Positions 9,067 to 40,730 of a DNA stretch of 40,943 nucleotides are shown here, piece by piece. A program made the position numbers and the translations under genes. The notes beneath the pieces are model-generated. The model did not search any database, had not been told where the DNA came from, and was given only the letters and a program-made list of their open reading frames with translations. The DNA is from Verrucomicrobiota bacterium (GTDB lineage: Bacteria; Verrucomicrobiota; Verrucomicrobiia; Limisphaerales; JADLHS01): assembly GCA_031423875.1 (NCBI GenBank), contig JANPGI010000565.1, forward strand, positions 1 to 40,943. Direction: 5' to 3'. Position 1 is the stretch's first letter; every line of letters starts with the position of its first letter.

Positions 9067-9112
9067 ATGGGTGGAACACCCCATAGCGACCTCGTGCGTG
9101 CCTATTTATTCT
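9067..9112 (+). promoter_or_regulatory. Regulon box 1 (AACACCCCATAG 9075-9086) plus -10-like TATTCT 9107-9112
   Basis: Exact 12-mer shared by six sites; fixed spacing to -10. Confidence 0.75.
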
Positions 9113-9202
9113 TTGGACGTTGGAATTAGTCAGTGTGGTTAGACCAACGCAAACCAAAAGAAAGAAACATGATCACAACCCAGCTTGAAAGGATCCAAAG
9201 CA

Positions 9203-10513
9203 ATGTTAACTAAATTAAATCCACGCGTCCAAATCCTCACTTTGTTTTTGCTGGGTCTGACCCTCCCGCACCAGTTCGCCACCGCAGCGCAAGCGCCCGT
9301 ACCCTTGGGAAGTGCTGGCAACTTCGGCGTGCTCGCCGCCTCCACTGTCACCAGCAGCGGGGCCACTGTCGTCACTGGCGACCTGGGAGTCTGGCCAGGT
9401 ACTTCGGTAGCCGGCTTCCCGCCCGGAAAGGTGGTTGGGACTATGCACGTCACCGATCCGGCCGCGCAGGCAGCACAGGGCGATCTTACCACCGCGTATC
9501 TCGACGCCGAAGGACGAACTACTGCTCCGGTTTCCGTTGCCGGAAATATCGGTGGCCAGACCCTGCCTCCAGGACTGTATAAGTCCACCTCCTCGTTGCA
9601 GATCTCATCCGGCGATCTGACGCTCGACGGACAAGGCGATCCCAATGCCGTCTTCATTTTCCAGATTGCCTCCACCTTGGTCACCACGTCTGGTCGTCAG
9701 GTGATCCTCATCGGCGGGGCACAGTCGGCTAATGTGTTTTGGCAAGTCGGCAGTTCCGCGACCATCGGAACCACCTCGGGCATGAAAGGCAACATCTTGG
9801 CCCTTGAGTCGATTGCCATTCAGACAGGCGCAACACTTCAAGGCAGAGCCTTGGCCCGAACTGCCGCAGTGACCCTCGAGGGCAATGAAATGACGGTGCC
9901 CACGCTTGGCGGGGGCGGTGGTGGCGGAGTCGTAGTGACTCCTTCGACCAACGTTTTTGTGAACGCCGTCTCGCCCATCACGTTGAATCCGCAGACCGGC
10001 CTGTTCGAGCAGACCGTTCGGTTGACCAACAGCAGTGCCAGCACCGTCGCGGCCGTCCAACTCCTTATCCAGGCCCTGCCGTCCGGCGTTCAGGTTTATA
10101 ATGCGAGCGGCAGCATCAACAGCACGCCCTTCGTGCAATATGGTTTTCCCCTCGCTTCTGCTGCGTCAGTTAATTTGTTGATCGAGTATTATCGCGCCAA
10201 TCGCCTGTCCATTCCCCAGCCGGCCTTTCTAGTTCGGGAAACCGCTCCACTCCCCGTGACCGCAACCGGCCCGGTTATCACAATCAATACAAACACGTTG
10301 GTGGCTGGACGGTTCCTGATCGAATTTTCAGCCACCCCGGGAGGCCGTTACGCGGTGCAGTACAGCAGCAACATGACAAACTGGAAAACCGCCGATCCCA
10401 TCATCACCGCCCCGGCCAATCGGGTGCAGTGGTACGATGACGGCCCGCCCAAAACTGAAAGCAAACCAACCACTGTCGGAAGCCGGTTCTACCGGATCAT
10501 GGTTCTACCTTGA
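9203..10513 (+). CDS. Secreted DUF3494 ice-binding-like protein with C-terminal domains
   Basis: Signal peptide; LGSAGNFGVLA, GDLGV.PGTSVAGFPPG, PGLYK, VFIFQI, NVFWQVGSSAT, GRALA; alternative TTG start 9185. Confidence 0.88.
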   Translation: MLTKLNPRVQILTLFLLGLTLPHQFATAAQAPVPLGSAGNFGVLAASTVTSSGATVVTGDLGVWPGTSVAGFPPGKVVGTMHVTDPAAQAAQGDLTTAYLDAEGRTTAPVSVAGNIGGQTLPPGLYKSTSSLQISSGDLTLDGQGDPNAVFIFQIASTLVTTSGRQVILIGGAQSANVFWQVGSSATIGTTSGMKGNILALESIAIQTGATLQGRALARTAAVTLEGNEMTVPTLGGGGGGGVVVTPSTNVFVNAVSPITLNPQTGLFEQTVRLTNSSASTVAAVQLLIQALPSGVQVYNASGSINSTPFVQYGFPLASAASVNLLIEYYRANRLSIPQPAFLVRETAPLPVTATGPVITINTNTLVAGRFLIEFSATPGGRYAVQYSSNMTNWKTADPIITAPANRVQWYDDGPPKTESKPTTVGSRFYRIMVLP

Positions 10514-10543
10514 GTCTCGTTAACCCCAAACATCCTAACCTCT

Positions 10544-11566
10544 ATGAATCGAGTTTTCCTTTCCACCACCCTCGCGCTCGCCGCAGCCACTCCGTTCGCC
10601 CTGCCCGGCGCGGATATTCCCGAGAACCCCAACCGCCTAAGCCTCGGTGCGCGCTTTGGCATGAACTTCAAAGCTGACTTCCGCAACAGCGCACCAGTCA
10701 ATCCCGGGCCTGCTGTCAGCGGCGCGGATCACATCTATAATGACGGTTACGTTCTTTTGGACAGCAGCGGAAACGCAGGCGGCCTCACCTGGAACTGGGG
10801 CTACCAAAACGCCTCTCAGGTGGTCGGCAACACCATGCAGTTCAATGCCATTGAGTCCAGTAGTCCTTCCGGCCTGACCGGTGACAACAGGGTCACCGGC
10901 GATCCACAATCCGGCGTCGAGCTGATCTACCAGCGTGTGCTAGGCCGGTTCGGGGCGGAAAGCAATGGTCGCTGGGGACTCGAAGCCGCCTTTGGCTACA
11001 CCGAACTCGACTTGAGCGACAGCCGCAGCGCGACTGGTCCCGTCACGGTCACAACCGACAGCTTTCCACTTAATGGTGTGATACCTCCCAGCGCTGGCTA
11101 TAATGGCTCTTTCCAGGGACCCGGCGCCCTGCTCGGCGACACCCCCACGCGAACCATCGCGTCCGGCACTGGCACCCTGACAACCCATCAAAAGTTGAGC
11201 GGACAGTTATATGGCATTCGTCTCGGTCCTTTTGCCGAATGGAATTTAACTTCCAAACTGAGCCTCGCCGCCAGCGTGGGCCTGACTTTGGCTCCGGCCT
11301 TGGTTGAATACGACTTCTCGGAAACCAGTACGGTGGCTGGCGGCAGCACATCCGTGGCGAGCGGTCATTCGTCCAAAAATAAACTGCTATACGGCGCCTA
11401 CGCGAGCGCGATGCTCCGTTACGACTTCAGCAAACATTGGGGCATCTTTGCGGGCGCACAGTTCCAAAGTTTGAACTCATTGGAGCAATCCATTGGCAAT
11501 CATACAGCCCGCCTTGACCAGGACGTCACGGTTTATGGCGTCGTGGGCATCAGTTGTGGGTTCTGA
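10544..11566 (+). CDS. Probable outer-membrane beta-barrel protein
   Basis: Signal peptide, alternating amphipathic strands in the C-terminal half, terminal Phe (YGVVGISCGF). Confidence 0.65.
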   Translation: MNRVFLSTTLALAAATPFALPGADIPENPNRLSLGARFGMNFKADFRNSAPVNPGPAVSGADHIYNDGYVLLDSSGNAGGLTWNWGYQNASQVVGNTMQFNAIESSSPSGLTGDNRVTGDPQSGVELIYQRVLGRFGAESNGRWGLEAAFGYTELDLSDSRSATGPVTVTTDSFPLNGVIPPSAGYNGSFQGPGALLGDTPTRTIASGTGTLTTHQKLSGQLYGIRLGPFAEWNLTSKLSLAASVGLTLAPALVEYDFSETSTVAGGSTSVASGHSSKNKLLYGAYASAMLRYDFSKHWGIFAGAQFQSLNSLEQSIGNHTARLDQDVTVYGVVGISCGF

Positions 11567-11798
11567 TGGGCTGGCCCAAGTTGCACGCAGTTGGCTCACT
11601 ACATGAATCGGCCAGCGGGCGTACCCAAGACGTACCTAGTCCGGAGATGAGGTGTTGTTCGTCAATGGCTGTTCGGATGTCATGGCACGACTGATTGATT
11701 ACGGGCGTCACCTCGCCGTAATGGCGACGCCAGACAAAGAAAGCGTGAACAACTTTCGCCCCCTCGTCACCATCACGCGCGACGACTCGCCACCCTTT

Positions 11799-12083
11799 AT
11801 GGATAGAAACAGCCTCGCTTTCTGGATGACTTTGGTGGGAACCGTTTGCTGGGGAGTTTGTTTTTGGTGGATGCACCGGATCTCCACAAAACAGAACACA
11901 CTTCTCGACCAGCTTCGCGAGCAGGGCAAACGAATCGAAAAATTATCCAAGATCGAACATGACCTCATCAAGGAAGTGCATCCCCAGGTCAGTGAGATCA
12001 AGGAAGGGATGGATGAGATGATCGCGGTGGTGAAGGAGAATTCTGGCAACCCGCTTCCGGCATCAAAAAAGAAACGGATATAG
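11799..12083 (+). CDS. Small single-TM coiled-coil hypothetical protein
   Basis: Hydrophobic/aromatic N-terminus followed by a heptad-like charged region; start chosen at MDRNS. Confidence 0.6.
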   Translation: MDRNSLAFWMTLVGTVCWGVCFWWMHRISTKQNTLLDQLREQGKRIEKLSKIEHDLIKEVHPQVSEIKEGMDEMIAVVKENSGNPLPASKKKRI

Positions 12084-12099
12084 CCTCATCAAATTCTGC

Positions 12100-12145
12100 A
12101 TGGGGTGATCACCCTATGGCACGCTCCGGCTTTTTGAATTATTTT
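12100..12145 (+). promoter_or_regulatory. Regulon box variant ATGGGGT-GATC-ACCCTAT (12100-12117) plus -10-like TATTTT 12140-12145
   Basis: Near-perfect palindromic version of the box; same spacing; ATG 7 nt after the -10. Confidence 0.65.
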
Positions 12146-12151
12146 TACCAC

Positions 12152-12880
12152 ATGAATTACGCAACCCAGGAATTTTCCCTCTCCGACCGTTTGAAAGCCG
12201 TTTTCACCCCGAACGGAGAAGTTGAAACCGCACCGTCCTCACCTCTCGATGATGAACCGTGCGGGCACTTCTGTCATCCCCATGCACTCGTGGATGCTGG
12301 CACTACGATTGGCAAAAGAACGCGGATATGGGCGTTTGCTCATGTTGCCACCGGCGCAACCATTGGCGAGGACTGTAACATCTGCGACCATACATTCATC
12401 GAGGGTGAGGTTCGCATCGGCAATCGCGTGACGCTGAAGTGCGGTGTGTTTTTGTGGAATGGCGTCTCTGTCGAGGATGATGTTTTCATCGGCCCCGCCG
12501 CCGTATTCACGAATGATTACCGCCCTCGTAGCAAACGCTATCTCCCGGATCTCAAAACTGTACTCAAGGAAGGTTGCAGCATCGGCGCCAACAGCACGGT
12601 GTTACCCAACCTGACTGTTGGCCGCTGGGCGATGGTCGGGGCTGGATCGGTCGTCACACGCAGCGTGCCGGATCATGCTTTGGTGGTGGGCAACCCCGCG
12701 CGGTGGCGTGCCTGGATTTGTCGTTGCGGAGAAAAACTGCCTCCCGCTTTCGGTGGTGTGCTGAAGTGCGACTGCGGAAATTCCTACGAGCAGATTTCAA
12801 ACAATGAAGTGCGAGCGGTTGTCATCAACGGCCACTCTGCCGCCAAGGGTCACGCAAGCTATCTAACCGATGACGTATGA
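12152..12880 (+). CDS. Hexapeptide-repeat N-acetyltransferase (WbpD/WxcM-like) with C-terminal Cys cluster
   Basis: IG..TRIWAFAHV..GA.IGEDCNIC, VFIGP.AVFTND, SIGANSTV, VGAGSVVT, VVGNPAR, WICRCG..C.CG. Confidence 0.88.
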   Translation: MNYATQEFSLSDRLKAVFTPNGEVETAPSSPLDDEPCGHFCHPHALVDAGTTIGKRTRIWAFAHVATGATIGEDCNICDHTFIEGEVRIGNRVTLKCGVFLWNGVSVEDDVFIGPAAVFTNDYRPRSKRYLPDLKTVLKEGCSIGANSTVLPNLTVGRWAMVGAGSVVTRSVPDHALVVGNPARWRAWICRCGEKLPPAFGGVLKCDCGNSYEQISNNEVRAVVINGHSAAKGHASYLTDDV

Positions 12881-13578
12881 AAAAAATCCACCTTTGGCTG
12901 ACTCTGATTGTCGTGCTGTCGCTCGCACTCATTGGCACAGCCTATCAACCAGACCCAGAGGTCGCACCCAATCCAGAGGTCATCTACATTGCGTTGGTGT
13001 TCGATGATGGGCCATTTCCCAATCATGCACCCCAGCTTCTGGCGTTGCTCGCCAAAGAACAGGTTCATGTGACGTTCTCCATGGTAGCATCGAACGTCCA
13101 CAGATTTCAGAGTACGGCAAAAGCCATCGTTGCCGGAGGACACGAGGTGGCCTGTCACTCCTATTCACATCGCCATCCAAAGGATTTGGACGATGCTGCG
13201 CTTGAACAGGAATTCGTGGGCGCGCAGAAAATAATCACCGAGGTGACGGGTCGCCCGGCAAAATGGTATTGGCCGCCCTTCCTTGAAATGGACGACCGGA
13301 TGCCAGCAATGGCCGACAAGGCAGGTATGGAAATCTATTCGCTCAAAAATGTCGTCGTCTCCAAGGATTACGACAGTGGCGTAGGCAGGAGAGGCATCAA
13401 GCGGAACGCCACGCGCAATGTCGTGGATGGATCAATCATCGTGTTCCATGAATGGAGGGAAGAAACCCGGGAACAGTTACCCGCCATCCTCGCCGAACTC
13501 CGACGGCAAAATTGCGCCTTCCTCACATTCAGCGAGCTGGCGGAGAAAGTTCGCGCAAAAAATCCGGCTGCAAAGTAG
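12877..13578 (+). CDS. Polysaccharide deacetylase (NodB/CE4), exported or membrane-anchored
   Basis: FDDGP, HEVACHSYSH, PPF, IIVFHE; hydrophobic N-terminus. Confidence 0.88.
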   Translation: MKKIHLWLTLIVVLSLALIGTAYQPDPEVAPNPEVIYIALVFDDGPFPNHAPQLLALLAKEQVHVTFSMVASNVHRFQSTAKAIVAGGHEVACHSYSHRHPKDLDDAALEQEFVGAQKIITEVTGRPAKWYWPPFLEMDDRMPAMADKAGMEIYSLKNVVVSKDYDSGVGRRGIKRNATRNVVDGSIIVFHEWREETREQLPAILAELRRQNCAFLTFSELAEKVRAKNPAAK

Positions 13579-13679
13579 ATGGCTCGATGGTTTCGCAGCC
13601 CCATGCCGCGCCGTCCAATCAAATGACGTTCGTGGCAGGAAGAGATGGCAATACGGAAAGCGGAGCGGTTACACAGGAT

Positions 13680-13726
13680 GGGGGTAGAACACCCCATAGC
13701 ACCCACAAGGCTCGTCTGGTTAGTTT
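13680..13726 (+). promoter_or_regulatory. Regulon box (13688-13699) plus -10-like TAGTTT 13721-13726
   Basis: Exact 12-mer; ATG 13733 is 7 nt after the -10. Confidence 0.75.
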
Positions 13727-13732
13727 ATGATT

Positions 13733-14686
13733 ATGAACGATACCCAAACTTTGTCGGCGACCAAAACAGGCGGCGCATCAGCACATTCTCCAAAGATTGA
13801 TCCCCATCGTATCCTCGTGGTAGATGACGATAGCGACATCCGTCATTTCAACGCCGACGTGTTGACTGGCTGTGGCTACGAGGTGGACACGGCTGAAGAC
13901 GGGGCTGCCGCTTGGGAGACTATTCAACTGAACAACTATGACCTCATGGTTACTGACAACAACATGCCGAATTTGTCAGGCATTGAGTTGCTCATAAAAC
14001 TTGATGCCGCCGGCATGTCGCTGCCGACCATCATGGCCACGGGAACATTGCCAACGGCTGAATTCGTGCTTTACCCTTGGCTACAACCTTCCATTACGCT
14101 GCTGAAGCCCTATACCCTCCAAGAGCTTTTGGAAGCAGTGAGAACCATATTCACAGCGGAAAGCACCTCCGCTTACTCCAAACTTTTGACGTCTCAAGAT
14201 TTGAATTATAAAAACATCCCGCAAGTGAGTGAGAGGGCCGTAGCATCGCAGAAATGCCCTGCAAATCCTGCTCATCGCATCCTTGTGGTGGATGAAGACC
14301 AAGACCTTCGCTGGCTGTATTCCGAGGTGTTGGCTGGTAGTGGCTACGATGTTGACGGCGCTCAAGATGGCATTGCGGGATGGGATGCGCTTCAGTCCAA
14401 CAGCTACGAACTGTTGATCACCGATCACGATCTATCCAAGCTGAACGGCATTCAACTTGTCAGAAAGCTGCGGGCTGCTCACATGACGCTTCCCGTGGTG
14501 ATGGCTGCAACAACTTTGCCAACGCATGAACTGCACAGGGATGTATCGCTTCAACTCGCGGCGACACTGCAGAAACCCTTTGGTATTGACGCGTTGGTGG
14601 ACACGGTGAAATCAGTCCTGCACGCGCCACTCTTGCCAGTGCGCAACTGGCAAGGCGAGCCAGCCGCCACCGGTTTCAGGTGCTGA
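13733..14686 (+). CDS. Tandem double-receiver (REC-REC) protein without output domain
   Basis: Two similar REC units HRILVVDDD..TDNNMP..LLKPY and HRILVVDED..TDHDLS..LQKPF. Confidence 0.88.
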   Translation: MNDTQTLSATKTGGASAHSPKIDPHRILVVDDDSDIRHFNADVLTGCGYEVDTAEDGAAAWETIQLNNYDLMVTDNNMPNLSGIELLIKLDAAGMSLPTIMATGTLPTAEFVLYPWLQPSITLLKPYTLQELLEAVRTIFTAESTSAYSKLLTSQDLNYKNIPQVSERAVASQKCPANPAHRILVVDEDQDLRWLYSEVLAGSGYDVDGAQDGIAGWDALQSNSYELLITDHDLSKLNGIQLVRKLRAAHMTLPVVMAATTLPTHELHRDVSLQLAATLQKPFGIDALVDTVKSVLHAPLLPVRNWQGEPAATGFRC

Positions 14687-15058
14687 CGATTGCGTGCGAG
14701 ATTTACGATCTCCCGCCATCAGCTTTGCCACCGTATCGCTGGACGAACCGCCTCCCGCTTTCGGTCGGGTGCTGAAGCGCGAGCGATTGCCACCAATGGT
14801 CATTGAGTCGGATTACTGTGGCCGTTCGCAAAACCCCCTTGGTTTTGAACGCAGACACCAAAGTAGAGCGTTGGACAAGAAGGGCCATGACAACGCAGCG
14901 CGTCATCGCTACCAGCTTTGGAGTTCGGGTCAATCGCGCATGAATAGCTTCGTCAACAAATGTCGCCAGCTCTTGGGTGAACTGAATTTGTATTCCCCGT
15001 GCAAGTTGATGATCGCAATCATCGGCAGCAGCGAGGCGCTGGTTGATGAAGCACGCTT

Positions 15059-15105
15059 GGTAGGGTAACACCCCATAGCATCAGCCAGTCCTTTCCAAGC
15101 ATTGT
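15059..15105 (+). promoter_or_regulatory. Regulon box (15067-15078) plus weak -10-like CATTGT 15100-15105
   Basis: Exact 12-mer, GGTAGGGT left arm. Confidence 0.7.
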
Positions 15106-15169
15106 GGGGATGAGAAAAGAGAACGCTCCGACAGAAGCAAGTGGGTTCTCTCCCGATGAATCGCCGACC

Positions 15170-15556
15170 ATGAAACACAACAAGAACCATGACAATGCTC
15201 CAGACGCAGCCCAAGCATTGATGCCGGTTCACTTTGAGTTCACTCACCTGACCGCTGTCACTGTTTGCGTTGCAGGCACGTTCAACAACTGGCATCCCAC
15301 CACCAAAGCCATGCACCCAGCCGGGAGCGGCCATTGGATGAAGGAAGCCTTCTTGCCACCCGGCAAATACGAATACTGCCTCGTAGTGGATGGCCAATGG
15401 ATTCCTGATCCAAGTGCTTTGGAAACCGTGCCCAATCCTTTCGGCGGAAGAAACTCGATCTTGAATGTGGCCTGCTCCCCGGAAGCCGCCCATCGCGCGG
15501 ACGCACAAAATCTACCGTTGAAAAACACAAACAAAAAGAACACCAAAAAAATATGA
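15170..15556 (+). CDS. Glycogen-binding (CBM48 / AMPK-beta-like) domain protein
   Basis: V.VAGTFNNW, LPPGKYEY..VVDGQW..DP....VPNPFGGRNS. Confidence 0.88.
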   Translation: MKHNKNHDNAPDAAQALMPVHFEFTHLTAVTVCVAGTFNNWHPTTKAMHPAGSGHWMKEAFLPPGKYEYCLVVDGQWIPDPSALETVPNPFGGRNSILNVACSPEAAHRADAQNLPLKNTNKKNTKKI

Positions 15557-15852
15557 GCAAAGAAACCCAAGCCATCAGTCATGACGTAAGCCAACTGGCC
15601 GAAGACGCCCGCGCGTTGATGACCGCCACCGCCGATGTCGCCGGAGAAAAAGTTGGCGAAGCCCGCAAACGCCTTGCCGCCGCCTTGGATCAGGGCAAGG
15701 AAATCTACGGTCGCGTCCGTGACAAAGCCGTCGAAGGCGCAAAGGTCGCTGACAAAACCGTCCGCGAGAATCCTTATCAAGCCATCGCCATCGGCGTCGG
15801 CGTCGGGGCGCTCGTCGGTTATCTCCTGGGACGCCGTTGCTCCCGCGATTGA
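15553..15852 (+). CDS. DUF883 ElaB/YqjD-family tail-anchored protein
   Basis: Amphipathic helix, D..VRENPYQAIAIGVGVGALVGYLLGRR. Confidence 0.9.
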   Translation: MSKETQAISHDVSQLAEDARALMTATADVAGEKVGEARKRLAAALDQGKEIYGRVRDKAVEGAKVADKTVRENPYQAIAIGVGVGALVGYLLGRRCSRD

Positions 15853-15859
15853 TCCCGTT

Positions 15860-16249
15860 ATGGAAGAATCCTCCGTCAGCTTCAAGCAACTGGCCGCGAC
15901 CTCGAAACAGTTCGCGCGCCGGCTGTTGACCATCGGTGAAAACCGGCTCGAATTGTTGACGGTGGAAGTGCAGGAGGAGCGTGAGCGTCTCCTGCACGCC
16001 ATTTTACTCGCGCTTGGCGTGGCGACATTTGGTCTGCTGACCGCCATCACCGCCACGGCGTTGGTCGTCGTTTTCTTCTGGGCCTATTCTCCCGTGCTGG
16101 CGCTCCTCGTTTTGACCGCGCTCTACGGAACGGCTGGTGTTTATCTTTACCTACAACTCACCGCTCGACTGCGGAACGCGCAGACACTCGCCGCCACTCT
16201 GGAACAACTCCGAAAGGACCGCGCATGTTTGGAAAAAGCTCTCGAATGA
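15860..16249 (+). CDS. YqjE-like (phage holin family) two-TM membrane protein
   Basis: RLELL.VE.QEER, two TM helices, TLEQLRKDR; typical position after DUF883. Confidence 0.82.
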   Translation: MEESSVSFKQLAATSKQFARRLLTIGENRLELLTVEVQEERERLLHAILLALGVATFGLLTAITATALVVVFFWAYSPVLALLVLTALYGTAGVYLYLQLTARLRNAQTLAATLEQLRKDRACLEKALE

Positions 16250-16551
16250 ATCCCCTCGCCACGCGTAAACAGATGTTGATTGCCGAAAGCGAACTCAACC
16301 GCGCGCACTTGGTTCAAGACTGGCAGACGATGGCGGGCGAAGTTCACGCGCTGGCTGATGAAGTGCAAACCCTCCGCTCCATGGCCTCTGCCGCTGGCTC
16401 ATTGGTAGCCGGTCTTGCCGCGTTGCGACGCAAGAAATCTGCGCCCGCTGAAAAACCGGCATGGTGGCAAACTCTTCTCAAAGGCGCGGGTCAGATTTCC
16501 ACACTCTGGTCGGCATTTCGTGCGCCTAGGCACGTTCCAAAAGACACTTAG
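16246..16551 (+). CDS. YqjK-like protein
   Basis: RKQMLIAESELNR..L motif; ATGA overlap; synteny with DUF883-YqjE. Confidence 0.65.
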   Translation: MNPLATRKQMLIAESELNRAHLVQDWQTMAGEVHALADEVQTLRSMASAAGSLVAGLAALRRKKSAPAEKPAWWQTLLKGAGQISTLWSAFRAPRHVPKDT

Positions 16552-16574
16552 TCGAACTTCAGAAATACAAATCT

Positions 16575-17288
16575 ATGTTACGCAGCATCAAACAACTCTA
16601 CGGAAACAAACTCGGCGCGACCGATGGCGAAATCGGTCATGTGAAAGATTTTTACTTCGACGACCAGAATTGGGCCATCCGTTATCTGGTCGTGGACACG
16701 GGCAACTGGTTGCCCGGACGACAGGTGCTCCTCTCGCCCTATTCGCTCGGACGTCTTGATCAGGTTGAAAAAGTCCTGCGCGTGAACCTGACCCGGAAAC
16801 AGATTGAGAACAGTCCTTCGATTGATCTGCACAAGCCGGTGTCGCGCCAATACGAGGAGGAGTATTACCGCTATTTCGGCTGGCCGTATTACTGGCAGGG
16901 TGAAGCGCTGTGGGGGCTCAGCGGCTTCCCGATTTTGGAAGCAGCGGGTCAACCGCTCCCGTACGAATCCGCCATGGCTAACAATCCGGCCACCGTTCCT
17001 CCTGACGCCCATCTGCGCAGCACGCAAGCCGTGAACGACTATCAAGTCCGCACGGGCGAAGACATGATTGGTCACGTCTGCGATTTCATGATGGACGCCG
17101 GGAGTTGGAAAATCGGTCAGTTGGCCGTCAAAACCGGCCACCGACTTTCCGGCATCGAGAAGCTGATCACGACAAAGGAAGTGGACCGCATCAGTTATGA
17201 GGAATCCACGGTGTTCGCGACTTTGACCCAGGAAGTTGTCGTGCCGAGTTCTACGCCCGACCCGGCGGCAACCGTTGCGTCACCTTGA
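16575..17288 (+). CDS. Double PRC-barrel domain protein
   Basis: L.G..L.ATDGEIGHVKDFYFDD..W.IRYLVVDTG.WLPGR.VLLSP; second barrel HLRST..V..Y....IGHV.DF. Confidence 0.88.
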   Translation: MLRSIKQLYGNKLGATDGEIGHVKDFYFDDQNWAIRYLVVDTGNWLPGRQVLLSPYSLGRLDQVEKVLRVNLTRKQIENSPSIDLHKPVSRQYEEEYYRYFGWPYYWQGEALWGLSGFPILEAAGQPLPYESAMANNPATVPPDAHLRSTQAVNDYQVRTGEDMIGHVCDFMMDAGSWKIGQLAVKTGHRLSGIEKLITTKEVDRISYEESTVFATLTQEVVVPSSTPDPAATVASP

Positions 17289-21950: not shown

Positions 21951-21952
21951 CC

Positions 21953-24434: not shown

Positions 24435-24485
24435 GAAACCGGCTGGCAGCCGAGCGAGTTCATCTGGACGTTGGCGACTTGTCGG

Positions 24486-24532
24486 ATGGGGTCAACACCC
24501 CATAGTGCCTATACTATTTTTCTGCTTACTTT
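24486..24532 (+). promoter_or_regulatory. Regulon box, perfect arms ATGGGGT-CAAC-ACCCCAT (24486-24503), plus -10-like TACTTT 24527-24532
   Basis: Exact 12-mer 24494-24505. Confidence 0.8.
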
Positions 24533-31911: not shown

Positions 31912-34900
31912 TTATTTTTTCCAGCCGCGCAGATAAAGCAGCTCTTCAAACTCTTTGAACTCAGGAGTTCCCGAGATTGTCTGCTTAAATTTGCTGTGAA
32001 GTTGCGAGTGATGTTCGTGAAGGAACGGATGATCCTCGCCTCTCGTAACCGCATTAACGTAGCGGCAGCTTTCTCTGGGAAAAGTGTCGAGCAGTGGACT
32101 CTTGAGCAATTTGTCGATGATGCTGTAAGCGAAAACTCCCTTGAGGCGCATTTGCACGATGCGTTGAACTGCTTCAGGAAAGACAGAACCCAAATAAAGA
32201 CACCAATCAGCCATCGCCTTTGTTTCTTGATCCAACAACGCGACTGGCACTCCGACCAGGCGTGAATCGAGGTATTCTTTTAGCCAAAGATTCCAGACTT
32301 CACCTGCCTTCTCAGTCGACGCTTCAAGAAACTTTCCCATTCCTTGCGCCAGCGAGCCGCGAACTTTTTCGGGCAGGCGAGGAAGAAAATCGCGGAAGAA
32401 ACCAGACGCTATAGGATTTTTTATTACACGCATTGCCAAGCCGGCCAGGTAGTGCCCGAGATTGTGCAAAGTGTGCTCATCAAATTGATCGGTTTTCTCT
32501 GGTGCATCCTTCAGCATGGCTGTGACCCGCTCAGAAACTTGCCGGTAATACGGCAACAATTGTTCCTCCAACTCAATGAATGTCGCCTGTCGGTAGTTCA
32601 GGAGCACCGACCATGTCTGCTGAGCCATCACGGCGTCTCGTTGCCAGTCGAGCAGCGGAAGAAAATGCTCGGTCGCGAATTTTTTGTCCCAGACAAAGAT
32701 GTAACCCATCCAAGGAGTCATCGCGATTCGAGCATAAACTTTGATTCGGCTCGTGCCTTGAATCGCTTCCTTCATTTTGGATTTCAGGCTCTGCGGTATT
32801 CCTTCCCATTCTTTCCCTGCCCGCTGTCGAAGATGGCTGCAATAATGCACCCAAAACTCTCCAATCCACCCGCCTTCGTGATTTATCGCGCTGGTTAACC
32901 ACTCTCGGTAACTGTCATCAGGTGTTTCTTCGACCTTGCTACATATTGCCCACGCTCGATCCATTAGGACGGCGGCTCTGCTGATAATTGCTTCCTCCGA
33001 TTTGATCTCGGCTTCCGCTCTCCAAATGTCGGAGATCAAGCTCGCCAAACCGGCAAATATTTCTGGAAGTTCTGGAAGCCCATCCACCACGCCTAGAATC
33101 CAAACCCAATCTTCCTTTGCTTTAGCCATTTGCTTCCATGCGGAAAAGACACCGTTCCAAATTTCTTTTGTCGCACCGTCCCTCTTTGAAAGCTCTTCGG
33201 TAAACTCTTTGCCCCACATTTTGTTTTTTCCGAAGAGCGCCTGCAAAAGACTCAAATGATCCCAACGATCTCGCCTCATTGAACTTTCAACGGCCCTCAA
33301 AAGACTGTCGACGAATCGAGAAGGCGGCTCAGAGAGTATTTCGTCGACGTTGAAACCCTCCGTGGGATCAATAAATCCTGCATCGCCACTCCAGTGATCA
33401 AAGGCGGGATGCTCGCGTTCTGCAAAGTTAGGATACGCTTTCCTAATCTTTTCAAGCGCATCGGCAACCAGAGAGCATTTCGTGTCTGCTTTGCGGAGCC
33501 ACATCAAGACGTTGAATTGTTCGTATGCGCCCGTCTCTGACCCGAGTCTCTTTTTGAGCGTCCCTTTGAACCCCTGTTCGATACGTCTCATCAATCTCTT
33601 GCGACTGGCTTCAGATGAACTTGGATACGCCACATTGAGGACATCGAACACTTCCTTCTTCATTCCCAAACGAAAGATGAGGTCATTGGTCAAGAGCCAT
33701 TCCAGACGTTCGTCACCGCTTGGCTTCGGATCAACTGAAATCCCGAAGACAGCCAGACGTTGCAGCAAGGGGAGTTTCGACGACCACCACGCCTCAACCT
33801 GTGTCCGCGCTCTCGCTGGATTGACCTGAAACCAGTGGAGCAACACGTCTCGCAGAAGGTCGATGAGCACCGACAAACATTCGTGCAGCGCATGGTGATT
33901 CTGTTCGTGTTCTGCTATCGAACTGCGCTGCCAACTGAGAATGTCCGTGTATTCATCTGCCTTGCCGACGCCGCGAAGCAATATGTGGGCAAGAGTAATC
34001 TGCTTAGTCGCGAGAAGTGCCAATGGTTCTGCTAGCAGATCCAGATTGGGCTTTAGCACTGTTTTCCACGCTTCATCAAGCCAGTGCCTCGATCCATCAG
34101 GCCAAACAATTTCGTAATCCACTTTCTTTTTCGACGTTTGTTTTGGTTTCTTCTCGCCGCCATCAGCGATCATCCCGGAAAAATCAAAATGTTTTCGCAG
34201 GTGGACTTGCGGTGTGGTCAACAATTCAAACAACCGCAAAGCGATGCCGGCGTCTTTGGGGATTCGGCATTTCTGGAGTAGATACGCCCACATGTCTTGC
34301 GATAGCGCTTGCTCACCTTGCGAAAGCAACAGTGAAACCCAGGTCGAAAAATGTGGGTCAGGAGATTTTTTATCTTCAGCCCAAACGACATGACCGAAAA
34401 TCTGTGTGAATGATCCGGAAAGGCGTTGATGCTGTGCTTGGATCATCTCCAAAAGCAACTCGGGATGCTTCCTGCGGACGAAAGTGGACAGCCAATGAGC
34501 GATAACACGTTGGTAATGCTGTAAATCCACTTTTGAATCGGCGAAGAAAACCTTGAAGTAGCCTTTGGCGTTCATCCAGCCAATCCATGCTGGATGCCGG
34601 ATCGCGTTACAGAAATCTTGAGCCAATTGAGGATGCCGCAAGCAGTAATCCAGATATTCAGAAACCGTCTCACTTTCGGGCGGTAAGCTCGCGGCAATGC
34701 TCTTCATCCTTCTTGAACGATGAAGAAGCGATTCTTTGTTGTTCTTCGCCCATCCGACAAAGTGATCGGTTAGTGCTTGATGCTTATTTTCGGCGTTCGA
34801 GGGATCGATCGGATATTGCTGCACGCTGATTTCCAAATGCGCCCATTGATCCACCTCCTCCTGGCCTAAATTTGAAGGCCTTAACGTCCAACGAGGTTTG

Positions 34901-35538
34901 ACCTGCGCCTGATTTAATCCACGCGCGAGATACGTTGTTGTAACGTCGTTATGGCTGTAGCCAACGAACAGCACCGTGTATTCCGAAAAAAGTGAGATCA
35001 GAAAATCACGCGCCCAGCCTCGCGTGAGATAGGCTGCTCCAAAATTCTTGTCCGTCAGCACCATCGTTTGCGGATTTTCTCTTGCCGAACCGTGGAGATA
35101 AACAATCCCATGAAAGTCATCGCCCAGTGGCAAAGCCGGAGCACAGAATTCTTTGACCGCTCGTTTTCGGAAAACACTCCGCGCCGCAGCAGAGAAATGG
35201 TCGTCAAAATTAGTTGTGACGATCCGCACCTTGTCTGGCGAGCCAAAAATTTTCAGAGCTTGCTTGTGCAACTCTGTGGGATGTGTTTTGGGATGGTAGA
35301 GGATTTTTGCCGCCACTGCGTGAACGTCAGTTCCATTGCGCGCCAGTTTTCCAAGCACTTGATCTTCCTTACCGGATGGAACTGAAGGCTGGCTGCAAAT
35401 TTGGCAAGCAAGCCCATTGAACAAAGGAAGATTCGATGGAGGCGGGAGTGAAACGCCTGCGCCTGCAAAAATAACCAATCGGCCTTCTTCCAAGGCTATT
35501 CTGATTTGATCTGGTAATCGGACACCTGCAAAAATCAT
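31912..35538 (-). CDS. SIR2-domain large protein (SIR2_2 + helical/DUF4020-like), probable anti-phage NADase, Dsr1-like
   Basis: IFAGAGVS, IVTTNFD, YLHGS, LFVGYSHND; 1208 aa; visibly more AT-rich than flanks. Confidence 0.8.
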   Translation of the reverse strand: MIFAGVRLPDQIRIALEEGRLVIFAGAGVSLPPPSNLPLFNGLACQICSQPSVPSGKEDQVLGKLARNGTDVHAVAAKILYHPKTHPTELHKQALKIFGSPDKVRIVTTNFDDHFSAAARSVFRKRAVKEFCAPALPLGDDFHGIVYLHGSARENPQTMVLTDKNFGAAYLTRGWARDFLISLFSEYTVLFVGYSHNDVTTTYLARGLNQAQVKPRWTLRPSNLGQEEVDQWAHLEISVQQYPIDPSNAENKHQALTDHFVGWAKNNKESLLHRSRRMKSIAASLPPESETVSEYLDYCLRHPQLAQDFCNAIRHPAWIGWMNAKGYFKVFFADSKVDLQHYQRVIAHWLSTFVRRKHPELLLEMIQAQHQRLSGSFTQIFGHVVWAEDKKSPDPHFSTWVSLLLSQGEQALSQDMWAYLLQKCRIPKDAGIALRLFELLTTPQVHLRKHFDFSGMIADGGEKKPKQTSKKKVDYEIVWPDGSRHWLDEAWKTVLKPNLDLLAEPLALLATKQITLAHILLRGVGKADEYTDILSWQRSSIAEHEQNHHALHECLSVLIDLLRDVLLHWFQVNPARARTQVEAWWSSKLPLLQRLAVFGISVDPKPSGDERLEWLLTNDLIFRLGMKKEVFDVLNVAYPSSSEASRKRLMRRIEQGFKGTLKKRLGSETGAYEQFNVLMWLRKADTKCSLVADALEKIRKAYPNFAEREHPAFDHWSGDAGFIDPTEGFNVDEILSEPPSRFVDSLLRAVESSMRRDRWDHLSLLQALFGKNKMWGKEFTEELSKRDGATKEIWNGVFSAWKQMAKAKEDWVWILGVVDGLPELPEIFAGLASLISDIWRAEAEIKSEEAIISRAAVLMDRAWAICSKVEETPDDSYREWLTSAINHEGGWIGEFWVHYCSHLRQRAGKEWEGIPQSLKSKMKEAIQGTSRIKVYARIAMTPWMGYIFVWDKKFATEHFLPLLDWQRDAVMAQQTWSVLLNYRQATFIELEEQLLPYYRQVSERVTAMLKDAPEKTDQFDEHTLHNLGHYLAGLAMRVIKNPIASGFFRDFLPRLPEKVRGSLAQGMGKFLEASTEKAGEVWNLWLKEYLDSRLVGVPVALLDQETKAMADWCLYLGSVFPEAVQRIVQMRLKGVFAYSIIDKLLKSPLLDTFPRESCRYVNAVTRGEDHPFLHEHHSQLHSKFKQTISGTPEFKEFEELLYLRGWKK

Positions 35539-37951: not shown

Positions 37952-38005
37952 GGCTTGAGGAAGTGCATCATTGGAGAGTGCAGACTTCAAACAAAATGTG
38001 TTCCC

Positions 38006-38051
38006 GGTAGGGTAACACCCCATAGAGAAGCTCCCAACCATCCCGTAACGT
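38006..38051 (+). promoter_or_regulatory. Regulon box (38014-38025) plus -10-like TAACGT 38046-38051
   Basis: Exact 12-mer in the divergent intergenic region. Confidence 0.75.
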
Positions 38052-38078: not shown

Positions 38079-38252
38079 ATGAAAAAAATCCTACTTTTAA
38101 CCGGCGTTGTTGCCCTCCTGACCACTACCGGATGTCTTATTACGGAAGGCGGAGGGCACGGAGGACACCGAGGGCACGGGAGACACGGAGGTCACTCGAC
38201 GATCATAGTGCCCGCTCCGGTCGTCGTTGTGCCGGTGATTCGTGGTCATTGA
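38079..38252 (+). CDS. Small His/Gly-rich lipoprotein (57 aa; absent from ORF track)
   Basis: MKKILLLTGVVALLTTTG-C LITEGGGHGGHRGHGRHGGHSTIIVPAPVVVVPVIRGH; lipobox-like TTGC. Confidence 0.75.
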   Translation: MKKILLLTGVVALLTTTGCLITEGGGHGGHRGHGRHGGHSTIIVPAPVVVVPVIRGH

Positions 38253-38326
38253 TGGGCGATCCGCTTGAAAAAACTTAACACAAAACTTAACATGAATAAC
38301 ACACTCACCCAACTTGGAGGCAATCC

Positions 38327-38524
38327 ATGTCTCTGATCTCTCTCGCTGTCACGCTGATTGTCATCGGCGTGTTGTTGTGGCTGGTCAACTCTTACATCCC
38401 GATGGATGGGAAAATCAAAAAGATTCTCAATGTCGTGGTGGTGATCTGTGTCGTCGTGTGGTTGTTATACGCATTCGGCATTCTGGATCGCTCCACCGAC
38501 ATCCGCGTTCCGCAGCTCCGGTAA
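38327..38524 (+). CDS. Small two-TM membrane protein (Thivi_2564-like)
   Basis: GGAGG RBS; LIVIGVLLWLVN.YIPMD.KIK.ILN.VVVI.VV.WLL..FG. Confidence 0.8.
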   Translation: MSLISLAVTLIVIGVLLWLVNSYIPMDGKIKKILNVVVVICVVVWLLYAFGILDRSTDIRVPQLR

Positions 38525-38550
38525 CAAAGGCTCTACCAACCATCACTCCT

Positions 38551-38910
38551 ATGATTCCCAATCACGAACAGTTCCTAGCCGCCATCAAAGATCGCAAAAA
38601 AGTCAACGTGCGGTTCTATTCCAAACCTGACAGTGGCGTGGTGGATCGCGTCTGTGTGCCGATGGATTATGGCCCGGGCGAGAATCCTGACGGATTGAAT
38701 CGCTACTGGCTTTGGGATGAAACGAGCGAAGCTAGCGATCACAAACTAGGCTTGGTGCCGCAGCAGATTGTGGACATGAGCATTCTGGGAGAGGTGTTTG
38801 ATCCGACACAATTTGTCGTGCCTCCTGTACCCGCACCAGTCGCAGTCGCGGCGGGACTGCCTCCCACAAGTGTCACTGAATCCGAAGTCATCCAACCCCC
38901 GGTGTTATGA
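38551..38910 (+). CDS. Hypothetical protein, WYL-domain-like
   Basis: AI..RKKV.V.FYS......R...P.DYG......YWLWD pattern; Pro-rich tail. Confidence 0.6.
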   Translation: MIPNHEQFLAAIKDRKKVNVRFYSKPDSGVVDRVCVPMDYGPGENPDGLNRYWLWDETSEASDHKLGLVPQQIVDMSILGEVFDPTQFVVPPVPAPVAVAAGLPPTSVTESEVIQPPVL

Positions 38911-39086
38911 AAACAGCCGGTGAAACTGATGACCGTAAGCTAAAATGGAATCCGACGACTCCCGAACGAATCCATTACAAGGCTTTTTCGCATGAAGTGT
39001 TGATGGCCTTCCCGACTCGGGATTCTGTTCGCGTCCGAATTGCCAGTCGCGCCGGGCGTGCATTGCTGATAGACATGGGGAAGTGA
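38907..39086 (+). CDS. 59-aa hypothetical ORF coupled at both ends
   Basis: ATGA overlap with upstream stop and GTGA overlap with downstream start. Confidence 0.4.
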   Translation: MKTAGETDDRKLKWNPTTPERIHYKAFSHEVLMAFPTRDSVRVRIASRAGRALLIDMGK

Positions 39087-39631
39087 AGGGCAAAGAACAG
39101 CAACCGCCAGACGCAGCCAGTCCCAAGACTCGCATTGAACAAGCGGAGGCTCGTACCGAGCAAGCCGAAGTCCGCACCGAGCAAGCCGAAGCGCGCACCG
39201 AACAGGCGAAGGCCCGCACCGAACAGGCGGAGACTCGTACCGAGCAAGCTGAAACCCGTACCGAACAGGCGAAGACGCGTACTGAGCAGGCTGAGACGAG
39301 AACCGAACGGGCCGAGACAGCTTTGGAAAACTTGAGCCATAAGGATGGGAATTTGCGGCGAGAAGTTTCTGCGACCACACACAAAGTTTTTCCTACGTCT
39401 GTCTCCAACGACCAACCTCATCCGCTCGAACAGTTGACGATCCGTCAGCGGGAAATCCTCCAATTGATCGCCGAAGGCCAGAACACCAAGCAGATCGCGG
39501 ATATTCTTAACGTCAGCCCGAAGACCGTCGAGTATCACCGCATGAAATTGATGGCGGGACTAAATCTACATGATATTCCCGGTCTGGTGCGATACGCCAT
39601 GCGCGTCGGTTTGATCCCGCCGGAAGGTTGA
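39083..39631 (+). CDS. LuxR-HTH regulator with N-terminal heptad-repeat coiled coil, no receiver
   Basis: (RTEQAE[A/T])x9, then LTIRQREILQLIAEG.NTKQIA..LNVSPKTVEYHR. Confidence 0.88.
   Translation: MKGKEQQPPDAASPKTRIEQAEARTEQAEVRTEQAEARTEQAKARTEQAETRTEQAETRTEQAKTRTEQAETRTERAETALENLSHKDGNLRREVSATTHKVFPTSVSNDQPHPLEQLTIRQREILQLIAEGQNTKQIADILNVSPKTVEYHRMKLMAGLNLHDIPGLVRYAMRVGLIPPEG
39131..39319 (+). repeat. 21-bp tandem repeat x9 (coding)
   Basis: CG(C/T)ACCGA(A/G)CA(A/G)GCN(G/A)A(A/G)NNN units. Confidence 0.92.
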
Positions 39632-39822
39632 CGCGCGAATCTTCAATTCGCCGTCGCACTATCGGACGACTAGTCCGTGTGTGGACGTTCGCTTAAAATG
39701 AATCTCACGTCTGATGCCTGCGAAGTGCCAGTGCCAGTGTCCCGAGTAGAGCGCTGCTGCCAGATGTAGGCAGGAGCGCCCCCAACATCGTTTGCTCAAG
39801 TAGAGAGTCATGGCTTTGGCTT

Positions 39823-40437
39823 TCAAGGTTGAGGATCACGAGTGCGATAGAACCGCTTGGAAAAACTTCCGGCGTTTGTGTTCGTATAATTTGCTGAACC
39901 ACTCGCCCCTGTGGTTACCGTGCCGAGGATCATCCACGTATTCAAATTCGTCGTGGTCTGGATTTCATACGTGTGAGCTGCTTTTCCCGTCACAGCGAGT
40001 ATCGCCTGCTTATTGGCTGCCACGAAAATCTGCTGTTTTGCAAGGCCGCCCGGCACGGTGTAAAAGATCTCGTTCGAGAATATGCTTTCCAGACCGATTG
40101 AATTATAAGCGACGACTGTGAAGTAATAAGTCGCGCCGATCAACAGGCCGGGGATTGAATTGGATGTCACGTTGCCCACCATGATGCTGTTCGTATAATT
40201 CCCGCTCACCGCGCCGTAATAAATGCGGTAGCCGGTGGCATCGGCACTGGAGCTGGCGTCCCAAGCCAGCGTCACGCCTAGAGCGGGTGCTGCTGCTGCG
40301 CTGAATGCCGTGCGGGGGCTGTGCATCAGTGCAACGGACAGCATCAATCCCAGAGCTTGACCGAGTCTTGCGATCCGTAAAACTCGACACAGTTTTTTTA
40401 CGCAACATGCAACCGTTGATCCAAATGTTTTTTGCAT
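39823..40437 (-). CDS. Secreted fibronectin type III protein with C-terminal RFYR-type domain
   Basis: Signal-like N-terminus; VTLAWD....ATGYRIYYG..SGNYT, L..GATYYF.V.AYN..G.ES..SNE. Confidence 0.82.
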   Translation of the reverse strand: MQKTFGSTVACCVKKLCRVLRIARLGQALGLMLSVALMHSPRTAFSAAAAPALGVTLAWDASSSADATGYRIYYGAVSGNYTNSIMVGNVTSNSIPGLLIGATYYFTVVAYNSIGLESIFSNEIFYTVPGGLAKQQIFVAANKQAILAVTGKAAHTYEIQTTTNLNTWMILGTVTTGASGSANYTNTNAGSFSKRFYRTRDPQP

Positions 40438-40687
40438 GATTACTGGTACGGCTCGCCATCTCTGGACGCGACTAGGGTGTTCCTTGCGATACAGGAAAAA
40501 CCCTTGGTGCAAAATGTCGGGGAACAATGAACGGCTGAACGGCCAGTAGCCGTGCTGCCAGATAGTGACGGCGACGTCCCTCGAGGAGAACAAACCGGTG
40601 CGGTGAAAAGAACGATGCGATGACGAGAGAGGGAACGGCGACAAAAGTAGAAGGTGCGTTTTAGGCCAGCCACCAGCATGTCTTTTC

Positions 40688-40730
40688 GGGTAACACCCCA
40701 TAGCTACCGCAGGTCATCCCACCGCACTAT
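40688..40730 (+). promoter_or_regulatory. Regulon box (40692-40703) plus weak -10-like CACTAT 40725-40730
   Basis: Exact 12-mer upstream of the second CBM48 gene. Confidence 0.7.

Follow-up and report, generated by a model that had tools for sequence, protein, structure and literature searches.

Contig JANPGI010000565.1 of a Verrucomicrobiota genome (assembly GCA_031423875.1) carries, within 40,943 bases, seven copies of a short DNA element that we refer to as the box. The box is a promoter element at fixed geometry, a statement in which we have very high confidence. It looks like the mark of a general-stress-like regulon that is conserved in Verrucomicrobiota and comprises about 20 promoters in this genome. 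The contig also encodes a NarL/FixJ-type response regulator of REC-GerE architecture, RR-A (8101..8790, + strand), directly behind a cassette of kai genes, and RR-A is our proposed box-binding activator. As a whole, the explanation put forward here, in which an operator bound by RR-A serves a stress regulon with modular kinase inputs, seems to us reasonably probable from the comparative evidence. The underlying observation is robust and RR-A is the probable regulator; a connection to Kai is plausible, though not proven.

We call the entire contig the window. It is contig C565 of the source genome (G000; 4.12 Mb, 597 contigs, 91.5% complete), and G, L and C numbers denote genomes, loci and contigs in the comparisons. 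These drew on 41 close genomes, a further phylum sample of 300 genomes, and 1,115,437 bases surrounding 80 foreign orthologues of RR-A (65-88% identity). Many of the genomes are incomplete metagenome bins and, because kin are not independent, phyletic counts overstate their statistical weight. The window sequence itself was matched in 10 DNA runs from three sediment-metagenome studies and in no RNA run.

The box and its copies

The exact 12-mer AACACCCCATAG occurs six times in the window, always on the + strand (9075, 13688, 15067, 24494, 38014 and 40692), just as a preliminary description of this contig had listed, and it is absent from 100 dinucleotide-preserving shuffles of the window. Elsewhere, reversed sequence or a reversed pattern served as the control. 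No additional site within two mismatches of the plain 12-mer was found in the window. The rarity claimed for the motif, which had been estimated by chance expectation for the window only, extends to the genome: there are eight exact copies in 4.12 Mb, six of them inside the window. The variant that had been proposed as a seventh site is also real in the sequence, with ATCACCCTATGG at 12108-12119 standing in the register of the others. Counting positions from the first base of the 12-mer, this site has two mismatches to W-ACACCCCAT-R-G, GG at -4/-3 and TATTTT at +33, and sites of its class (two mismatches plus GG plus TAnnnT) number 18 in real sequence against 1 in reversed sequence. The perfect ATGGGGT-N4-ACCCCAT noted earlier is present at 24486-24503.

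A relaxed scan, which accepts exact sites, sites with one mismatch and GG at -4/-3, and sites with two mismatches, GG and TAnnnT, returned 22 sites in G000, compared with a single one when the genome was reversed. Sixteen of them lie on two contigs, so that the roughly 22 promoters include seven in the window and nine in a second cluster on contig C279. Over loci L013-L117 and the window together, the mismatch control gave 174 real and 0 reversed sites with no mismatch, 108 and 4 with one mismatch, and 95 and 4 with two mismatches and GG; the overlapping fetches L014/L105 and L026/L098 inflate these raw counts slightly. Tolerated changes fall mainly at positions 2, 3 and 12, and ACCCCAT is the hard core.

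The consensus of the relaxed pattern spans about 20 bp and reads GGGT-(0-2 nt)-W-ACACCCCAT-R-G-C. We infer that the 12-mer is the invariant, promoter-proximal half-site of an operator of about 20 bp, (A)TGGGGTG-AA-CACCCCAT(A/G)G(C). Base counts were taken over 134 sites (the 80 foreign loci plus G000). The two G residues at -4/-3 lie outside the 12-mer used for selection and are found at 133/134 and 126/134 sites, and a C follows at +13 in 100/134. The left arm falls into classes: palindromic GGGGTG|AAC at 45 of the 134 sites, GGGT|TAC at 56 (a common variant with GGGT one base nearer) and GGGTnn|AAC at 6, with 27 sites unclassified. At C279:856-877 the box is a perfect 10-2-10 palindrome, CTATGGGGTG-AA-CACCCCATAG. 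The NarL heptamer consensus is TACYYMT in a 7-2-7 arrangement. The suggested resemblance of the arms to such heptamers does not hold in register or spacing: with its core ACCCCAT(A/G)G and arms 3-5 nt apart, the box has one C more and is spaced differently, and the likeness is one of style only.

Promoter geometry

Downstream of the box, a TAnnnT hexamer is recorded at +33/+34/+38 (T at 73, A at 81 and T at 92 of the 134 sites), one base further in a minority, and an A-rich, ATG-like signal follows at +46 to +52. Positions 10-15 of the box promoters read T-R-G-C-n-n. At the seven window sites, the hexamer that had been placed 20-21 nt past the end of the box is there in every case, as TANNNT at five and CANNNT at two. 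Start-codon distances were measured at 124 sites; the first start codon of an open reading frame (ORF) of at least 50 amino acids (aa) stands at +45 to +49 in 42 of them and at exactly +45/+46 in 31. Four window units have start codons at +45 (12152), +46 (13733), +44 (15110) and +48 (24541), and the other three have leaders.

Leaderless messages have their start codon 7-8 nt past a -10 hexamer, and this spacing serves here as an in-silico proxy for the transcription start site (TSS), which places the box centre near -44, where the preliminary description had put it. We infer that box promoters are leaderless at many sites, and the recurrence of this spacing suggests that leaderless transcription is widely used in the regulon. 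No canonical -35/-10 pair was found at the boxes in 8000-17500 by a consensus scan, the counts of which were at chance level overall. The box promoters have no TTGACA-like hexamer and no TG extension, and for this reason they look activator-dependent. Together, the fixed TAnnnT at +33/34, the start codons at +45/46 and the weak or absent -35 would amount to a class II-type geometry if the TSS lies where the leaderless spacing places it. An alternative assignment of the extracytoplasmic-function (ECF) type, with AAC as -35 and CGT as -10, was discarded because no CGT stands at a consistent distance from one site to the next.

Regulon content

The stress-like character that had been proposed for the target set is borne out by the Pfam content behind boxes in the window, in the rest of G000 and in other species. 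Genes of the BON, CsbD, OsmC and PRC types are the content of general stress regulons. Here, hallmark protective genes stand under one element: BON, CsbD, OsmC, ferritin-like, nitroreductase, DUF883, PRC and ice-binding. Elsewhere in G000, box genes encode a BON-domain protein (C20), an esterase, CsbD, OsmC, a CHRD protein, a coiled-coil protein and an outer-membrane barrel, and ferritin-like, nitroreductase (C279), glyoxalase and MlaE/MlaD genes lie in the same box cluster. Several pairings of box and gene are kept across species, namely the AMPK1_CBM-DUF883-holin-X-PRC operon in six genomes, the 198-aa ORF in five, and the REC-REC and MlaA genes in four each. Pfam scanning covered 117 of the 124 downstream ORFs (six window ORFs and one duplicate were left out). 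Among these 117 ORFs from other species, BON and Response_reg were each found nine times, PRC four times, and ice-binding, fatty-acid desaturase and fasciclin domains twice each; most of the remainder had no Pfam match.

The regulator encoded at 8101

RR-A matches the Pfam families Response_reg (95.5 bits) and GerE (62.8 bits, residues 157-212). Its receiver residues D13, D58, S86 and K108 are conserved in the 80 orthologues, in which the recognition helix, KTVEKHRxHLMxKL, shows conservation of at least 95%. This helix differs from those of the five other G000 NarL-type regulators compared and from that of the GerE-only protein encoded at 39083 (KTVEYHRMKLM). The nearest solved full-length relatives are of the VraR/LiaR type (5hev, E 2.1e-42; 7ve6, 4gvp), followed by DesR, NarL and DevR (3c3w, E 7.6e-23). 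The assembled part of G000 yielded no further member of the RR-A family.

Physical linkage between this regulator and the box is extensive. The pattern [AT]ACACCCCAT[AG]G occurs 120 times in the sequence around the 80 orthologues, at 52 of the 80 loci, where about 0.5 copies would be expected. Box density is highest in the first kilobase past the regulator stop (45 forward boxes, in 37 of the 73 loci that reach that far), and the boxes upstream of regulator orthologues mostly face the opposite way. All eight box copies of G011 lie within 10 kb of its regulator gene. Phyletic distribution follows the same trend. Among the 41 relatives, copies of WACACCCCATAG number 4-17 in every one of the nine genomes whose orthologue is at least 74% identical; thirty of the remaining 32 have 0-2 copies, two (G003 and G009) have eight, and the reversed-pattern control yields 0-2. 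Relaxed boxes were found near 12 of 19 distant regulator genes (56-76% identity), in which the recognition helix is unchanged. Three genomes that carry the regulator are single contigs: G277 and G193 have a nearby box, exact or with one mismatch, and G100 has matches with two mismatches only. In the phylum sample, for which nine regulator candidates per genome were scored and totals were added by hand from tables, about 94 exact copies occur in 300 genomes, 30 of them in 23 regulator-positive genomes.

Conserved linkage, phyletic co-occurrence and a family-specific, conserved recognition helix make RR-A the best candidate for the protein that binds the box, as the preliminary description had supposed. 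We consider it likely that RR-A binds the box and, with somewhat less assurance, that it activates rather than represses transcription from there.

Several observations weigh against this assignment. At least three exact copies occur in eight genomes of the phylum sample, and these have a regulator match at E <= 1e-75 in five cases, a 57-60% match in two and none in one. The last, G324, is 93% complete and has three copies with no regulator match. No regulator orthologue was found in G003 (85% complete) or G009 (78% complete), which carry eight copies each, and three genomes with orthologues of 66-68% identity (G027, G028 and G031) have only 0-1 exact copies. Spacing between GGGT and ACCC varies (3, 4 or 5 nt), which is unusual for a rigid dimer, and the palindrome is matched at six or more of ten positions in only 60 of 134 sites; among structural considerations, it is this variable arm spacing that counts most against a simple rigid-dimer site.

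The 285-nt gap between the regulator stop and box 1 (8800-9074) holds a 79-aa ORF that starts with TTG and has no homologue in the 80 loci. In relatives the box often follows the regulator by 50-100 nt, and the gap may be the remnant of a rearrangement. Some public bins with the regulator locus have odd organism labels: 'Bifidobacteriaceae' for L038 and L053, 'Akkermansia muciniphila' for L051, 'Candidatus Kuenenia' for L084, and Acidobacteriota for L085 and L086. On bins with a locus of Verrucomicrobia type, these labels look misassigned.

Box-headed units in the window

All seven boxes lie on the + strand, and the target annotations that had been given from the sequence alone agree with Pfam (ice-binding, hexapeptide transferase/polysaccharide deacetylase, REC-REC, AMPK1_CBM/DUF883/PRC, GSDH and the 57-aa ORF). 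Box 1 (9065..9087), in which the 12-mer at 9075-9086 is joined by the left arm CATGGGTGG, has the -10-like hexamer TATTCT at 9107-9112; its predicted targets are an ice-binding gene (start 9185 or 9203, end 10513) and, probably, 10544-11566 and 11652-12083. The variant box 2 (12098..12120) is a near-palindrome, CATGGGGTG-ATCACCCTATGG, with TATTTT at 12140-12145, and would serve the hexapeptide transferase gene that begins at the ATG at 12152 (12152-12880) and a polysaccharide deacetylase gene (12877-13578). Box 3 (13678..13700; TAGTTT at 13721-13726) precedes an ATG at 13733, or alternatively at 13727, of a gene for a REC-REC protein that ends at 14686, with an ORF at 14694-15068 as a second predicted target.

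Box 4 (15057..15079) is followed by CATTGT at 15100-15105 and an ATG at 15110, and heads a predicted operon of AMPK1_CBM (to 15556), DUF883 (15553-15852), holin-X-like (to 16249), an ORF at 16225-16551 and PRC (16575-17288). Box 5 (24484..24506), which contains the perfect ATGGGGT-N4-ACCCCAT, has TACTTT at 24527-24532 and an ATG at 24541; its predicted targets encode a GSDH-Ig-GH43_C2-BACON protein (to 28410), MlaA (28456-30483) and an MFS protein (30480-31742). Behind box 6 (38004..38026; TAACGT at 38046-38051) lie a 57-aa ORF (38079-38252), the 198-aa ORF (38314-38910) and, as a probable target, the gene for the GerE-only protein (39083-39631). Box 7 (40682..40704; CACTAT at 40725-40730) is predicted to drive a paralogue of the 15110 gene that runs past the window end, with a divergent fn3 gene on the - strand (39823-40701). 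The AMPK1_CBM gene is thus duplicated (15104-15556 and 40793-40943), each copy with its own box promoter, and the two have a run of identical sequence close to the 5' end.

Other genes of the window are without a box. An S30AE hibernation-factor gene (18845-19207) lies in the middle of the island with no box within three mismatches; membership of the regulon does not extend to all stress-type genes of the window. An SbtA-type bicarbonate transporter gene followed by one for a P-II-like protein (21851-23240) adjoins purK/purE and TerC and is not box-controlled; the pairing of SbtA with P-II is known from cyanobacteria. On the - strand, the 1208-aa product of 31912-35538 has an SIR2_2 domain at its N-terminus and matches DUF4020 faintly. 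It resembles a defence-system protein, its gene has no box, and no homologue is present in the 80 loci.

Kai genes and possible kinase inputs

Upstream of RR-A, the window opens with a gene for a CheR-PAS protein (1-1677), overlapped at its stop by the gene for HK1, a PAS-PAS-HisKA_3-HATPase kinase (1674..3890, +). These are followed by kaiC (4124..5887, +), two tandem kaiB genes identified by Pfam (5884-6216, 110 aa; 6222-6584, 120 aa; +) and the gene for HK2, a coiled-coil-PAS-HisKA_3-HATPase kinase (6784..8091, +) of which the conserved part begins at about residue 52. KaiC scores 366.7 bits in two stretches of Pfam match and matches PDB 8dba at E 6e-187; the alignment spans residues 17-549 and takes in the C-terminal extension and a Ser-Ser site at 428-429. 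According to passages of PMC10076222, 8dba is the KaiA-independent hourglass KaiC of Rhodobacter sphaeroides, and its clade is KaiA-independent, with a C-terminus extended by about 50 aa and a Ser-Ser phosphosite. KaiC2-type features are thus found here in the double KaiC domains, the C-terminal extension, the Ser-Ser site and the adjacent kaiB; timer behaviour is putative.

From 5884 to 8101 the genes overlap or stand 5-9 nt apart, and the order KaiC-KaiB-KaiB-HK2-RR is conserved as a cassette in about 13 genomes. HK2-type kinases (at least 60% identity) occur only beside Kai genes wherever the contig is long enough. This restriction, the recurrent order and the tight spacing are good synteny evidence for a functional KaiC-KaiB-KaiB-HK2-RR cassette. 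The assembly of G000 yielded no second protein of the RR-A family; if HK2 signals at all, RR-A is its likely substrate. The tandem KaiB pair is kept in about 13 related loci, each paralogue with its own invariant residues. The cassette looks degraded in some relatives. In G019 (L098:1-2152 and L097:19211-19999), KaiC matches over residues 171-504 only and the HK2 match is limited to about 330 residues, with divergence setting in inside the PAS region; in L038 (8736-9962) the HK2 frame has an in-frame stop.

The preliminary description linked these genes to the box as a Kai-to-regulon circuit. The conserved order of the cassette supports one part of that idea, but the regulon is not specifically a Kai output, since Kai genes stand beside the regulator in only about 11-15 of the 80 loci. 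A motif equally common in relatives that lack the operon had been named as a finding that would speak against the circuit. The box does follow the regulator, but two box-rich genomes that have the regulator, G011 (96% complete, 8 boxes) and G035 (98% complete, 12 boxes), have no detected KaiC, which goes part of the way towards that finding.

Further observations tell against the Kai step. Most orthologues of RR-A pair with another kinase and have no Kai genes within 10 kb. This usual partner in Kai-less genomes (within L018:7876-10001, L025:8151-9985, L054:8089-9991, L095:14274-16132 and L101:10979-12118) has about 385 aa, with HisKA_3 and HATPase domains behind an RsbU_N-like N-terminus that matches weakly (22-25 bits, with the cut-off at 25.5). 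Kinase-core identity to this partner is 68% for HK1 and 36% for HK2. In G019 an HK1-type kinase directly precedes a regulator paralogue, which is followed by a box. In G001 the Kai-HK2 genes adjoin a regulator paralogue of 64% identity, and the 89% orthologue stands alone further on. Kai-linked regulators are scattered, judged by eye, in a quick and poorly resolved tree. HK2 has no KaiB-like domain: its residues 1-100 do not align to KaiB1, and Pfam finds only PAS, HisKA_3 and HATPase in it. As G000 is 91.5% complete, its missing part may also encode a further regulator or kinase. A complex prediction for KaiB1, KaiB2 and HK2 residues 52-225 scored 0.01 against a mark of 0.32, which is no evidence either way. 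At four of the loci with the usual partner (L018, L025, L054 and L095), the kinase is preceded by a 232-317-aa HisKA_3 protein without an ATPase domain, weakly RsbU_N-like in three of the four, and the two proteins could be a kinase/pseudo-kinase pair.

Read most simply, these patterns make the Kai-HK2 cassette one among a number of interchangeable inputs to a single master regulator. Given the synteny, we lean slightly towards HK2 relaying the Kai state to RR-A in this organism. More tentative, and on balance doubtful, is the full proposition that a KaiA-independent KaiBC hourglass timer, via its own PAS-HisKA_3 kinase, gates a general-stress master regulator in non-phototrophic sediment Verrucomicrobiota.

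A proposed mechanism and its alternatives

In the explanation we favour, the box would be an operator at a fixed place in sigma-70-type promoters that have no -35 consensus. TAnnnT would start 33-34 nt after the box start and transcription probably 45-46 nt after it, often at the A of the start codon. Phosphorylated RR-A would bind the box as a dimer and activate these promoters in a class II manner. The roughly 22 promoters would lead to BON/OsmY-like, CsbD, OsmC, ferritin-like, DUF883/ElaB, PRC-barrel, ice-binding, envelope and Mla lipid-transport genes, with the REC-REC and GerE-only proteins as putative second-tier regulators among the targets. Regulator family and box are common to many Verrucomicrobiota, and the kinase input would be modular. 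In most genomes that input may be a pair of RsbU_N-like HisKA_3 kinases, and here it may be the CheR-PAS-coupled HK1 together with the KaiC-KaiB-KaiB-HK2 cassette that lies between HK1 and the regulator gene.

It is unlikely, in our estimation, that another transcription factor binds the box and that RR-A merely neighbours its own targets. Such a factor could be the GerE-only protein, which had been named beside RR-A as a possible binder, one of its REC-GerE relatives, or an unrecognised protein. The GerE-only gene does stand after box 6 and before box 7, proteins related to it in the DNA-binding domain are encoded near boxes in G007, G019, G035 and G009, and the box-rich G003 and G009 lack a detected RR-A orthologue. 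Against this, full-length orthologues of the GerE-only protein are present in only four of the nine box-rich genomes that carry an RR-A orthologue, its recognition helix is not the one conserved alongside the box, and G012, G023 and G028 carry its REC-GerE relatives yet have no exact box. Its gene also has the position of a target, downstream of a box in an order (box, small ORF, 198-aa ORF, GerE-only gene) that is kept in G011 and G001; in G019, G007 and G009 a kinase and a full REC-GerE regulator take its place. Because few box-rich genomes carry it and the order behind the box recurs, the GerE-only protein looks to us more like a conserved target and second-tier regulator than like the binder. 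The LysR gene of the window (17580-18479) was considered as the box regulator and rejected, as it has no homologue in any of the 80 loci. Equally, we think it improbable that RR-A acts as a repressor that blocks the -35 region, with genes turned on when it leaves the DNA. The box overlaps the would-be -35 place, and position alone cannot separate activation from repression. However, such promoters would need a -35 hexamer or an extended -10 to fire without help, and neither can be recognised; the fixed phase between box and -10 is what contact between an activator and polymerase requires. VraR, DesR, NarL and DevR, the closest solved relatives, are mostly activators when phosphorylated.

Two further alternatives dispense with a regulator at the box. 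The box could be a -35-type element that an alternative sigma factor recognises. In favour are one invariant half, a fixed distance to the -10 hexamer, a single orientation relative to the gene, a variable left half and the frequent control of general stress regulons elsewhere by sigma factors. Yet we find this very unlikely, because the downstream hexamer TAnnnT is of the housekeeping type and the conserved block reaches to about -53, including the perfect palindrome on C279. Overlapping matches on both strands there and at L105 and L107 face ORFs on either side. No sigma-factor family appears among the 25 commonest families of the 117 downstream ORFs or in the window; no search aimed at the co-occurrence of a sigma gene was made. 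We give almost no credence to the box being a non-regulatory repeat, such as a miniature mobile element, a REP-like sequence, an RNA hairpin or a terminator. A hairpin of 7-8 bp (ATGGGGTG/CACCCCAT) is possible in some copies, and the distance between the arms changes in the manner of loop sizes, but the commonest left-arm class, GGGT|TAC, yields a stem of 4 bp only. Moreover, conservation is confined to about 20 nt with unrelated flanks, and copies lie upstream of orthologous genes across species at a fixed distance to the -10 hexamer and the start codon.

Comparison with known systems

An RR-A regulon of the kind proposed would resemble, by analogy, the NarL-family activator regulons of the DevR/DosR or lux-box kind. 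DevR/DosR of Mycobacterium tuberculosis is a NarL-family dormancy regulator served by more than one HisKA_3 kinase with haem-GAF sensor domains. Its operator is a G/C-rich inverted repeat of about 20 bp in the style of GGGAC...GTCCC, the proximal site of which overlaps -35. Shared with our system are a NarL/FixJ-type regulator with multiple HisKA_3 kinases, a G/C-rich inverted repeat of about 20 bp at the presumed -35, and a compact stress regulon clustered partly around the regulator. In contrast, the operator sequence and the phylum are different, VraR (2e-42) is a nearer solved relative of RR-A than DevR is, and here we find PAS, RsbU_N-like or Kai-linked kinase inputs, putatively leaderless promoters and CsbD/OsmC/BON-type genes. 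VraSR and LiaRS, the nearest solved homologues, share the REC-GerE architecture, HisKA_3 partner kinases and envelope-related targets. They differ in having membrane sensors, where our kinases are cytoplasmic PAS or Kai-linked proteins, and in their operator; the stress set here is also far broader.

General stress regulons elsewhere include those of sigma-S, of sigma-B and of PhyR-NepR-EcfG in Alphaproteobacteria. They have CsbD, OsmC, BON/OsmY, DUF883/ElaB, PRC-barrel and ferritin/Dps-like genes in common with the set described here, whereas in our case a two-component activator at a housekeeping-type promoter would be in control instead of an alternative sigma factor.

If the Kai link holds, the chain from Kai via a histidine kinase to a DNA-binding regulator with a regulon would parallel SasA-RpaA of the cyanobacterial KaiABC system. 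However, HK2 lacks the KaiB-like (thioredoxin-like) N-terminal domain and RR-A is of the GerE/NarL type, not an OmpR-type winged-helix protein; on these two grounds the output is not of the SasA-RpaA type. In addition, no KaiA domain turned up in the window ORFs that were scanned, KaiC belongs with 8dba in the extended Ser-Ser type, and the regulon also occurs in relatives with no detected KaiC. The KaiBC of Rhodobacter sphaeroides is similar in its KaiC, to which ours is closest including the C-terminal coiled-coil extension and Ser-Ser site, and in its adjacent KaiB. It differs in that here there are two tandem KaiB proteins and a dedicated kinase and DNA-binding regulator downstream. In the main text of PMC10076222 the term 'histidine kinase' is absent, and 'output' occurs twice, in one passage not in the signalling sense. 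The nearest published analogue we found is a KaiC-like/kinase/single-domain-regulator module of environmental Pseudomonas that affects stress resistance (bioRxiv 10.1101/2022.01.26.477890); as the preprint's pertinent passages present it, that module is without KaiB, a DNA-binding regulator, a cis-element or a direct regulon.

In the literature searched, with the motif string included, we found no description of the box, of a Verrucomicrobia Kai output or of a Verrucomicrobial general stress regulator, and non-cyanobacterial Kai homologues were tied to stress phenotypes or kinases, none to a DNA-binding regulator with a known operator; the supplementary synteny tables of PMC11372060, PMC10076222 and the Pseudomonas preprint lay outside this search and could hold similar clusters.

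Implications

The exact box is a simple genomic marker for members of the regulon, many of which are small uncharacterised proteins. If the more doubtful proposition of a timer-gated master regulator is true, the regulator and its box would be a so far unnamed general-stress master switch for a large part of the phylum. This switch would need no alternative sigma factor, would act mostly on leaderless mRNAs, and would govern protection against freezing, desiccation and oxidative damage. For the questions of what role KaiBC has in non-photosynthetic bacteria and by which route its state reaches the genome, the locus offers a testable chain, from KaiC-KaiB-KaiB to a kinase, a NarL-type regulator, a 20-bp box and about 20 promoters. 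Under the same proposition, a Kai system outside cyanobacteria would for the first time have a defined output regulon at the DNA level.

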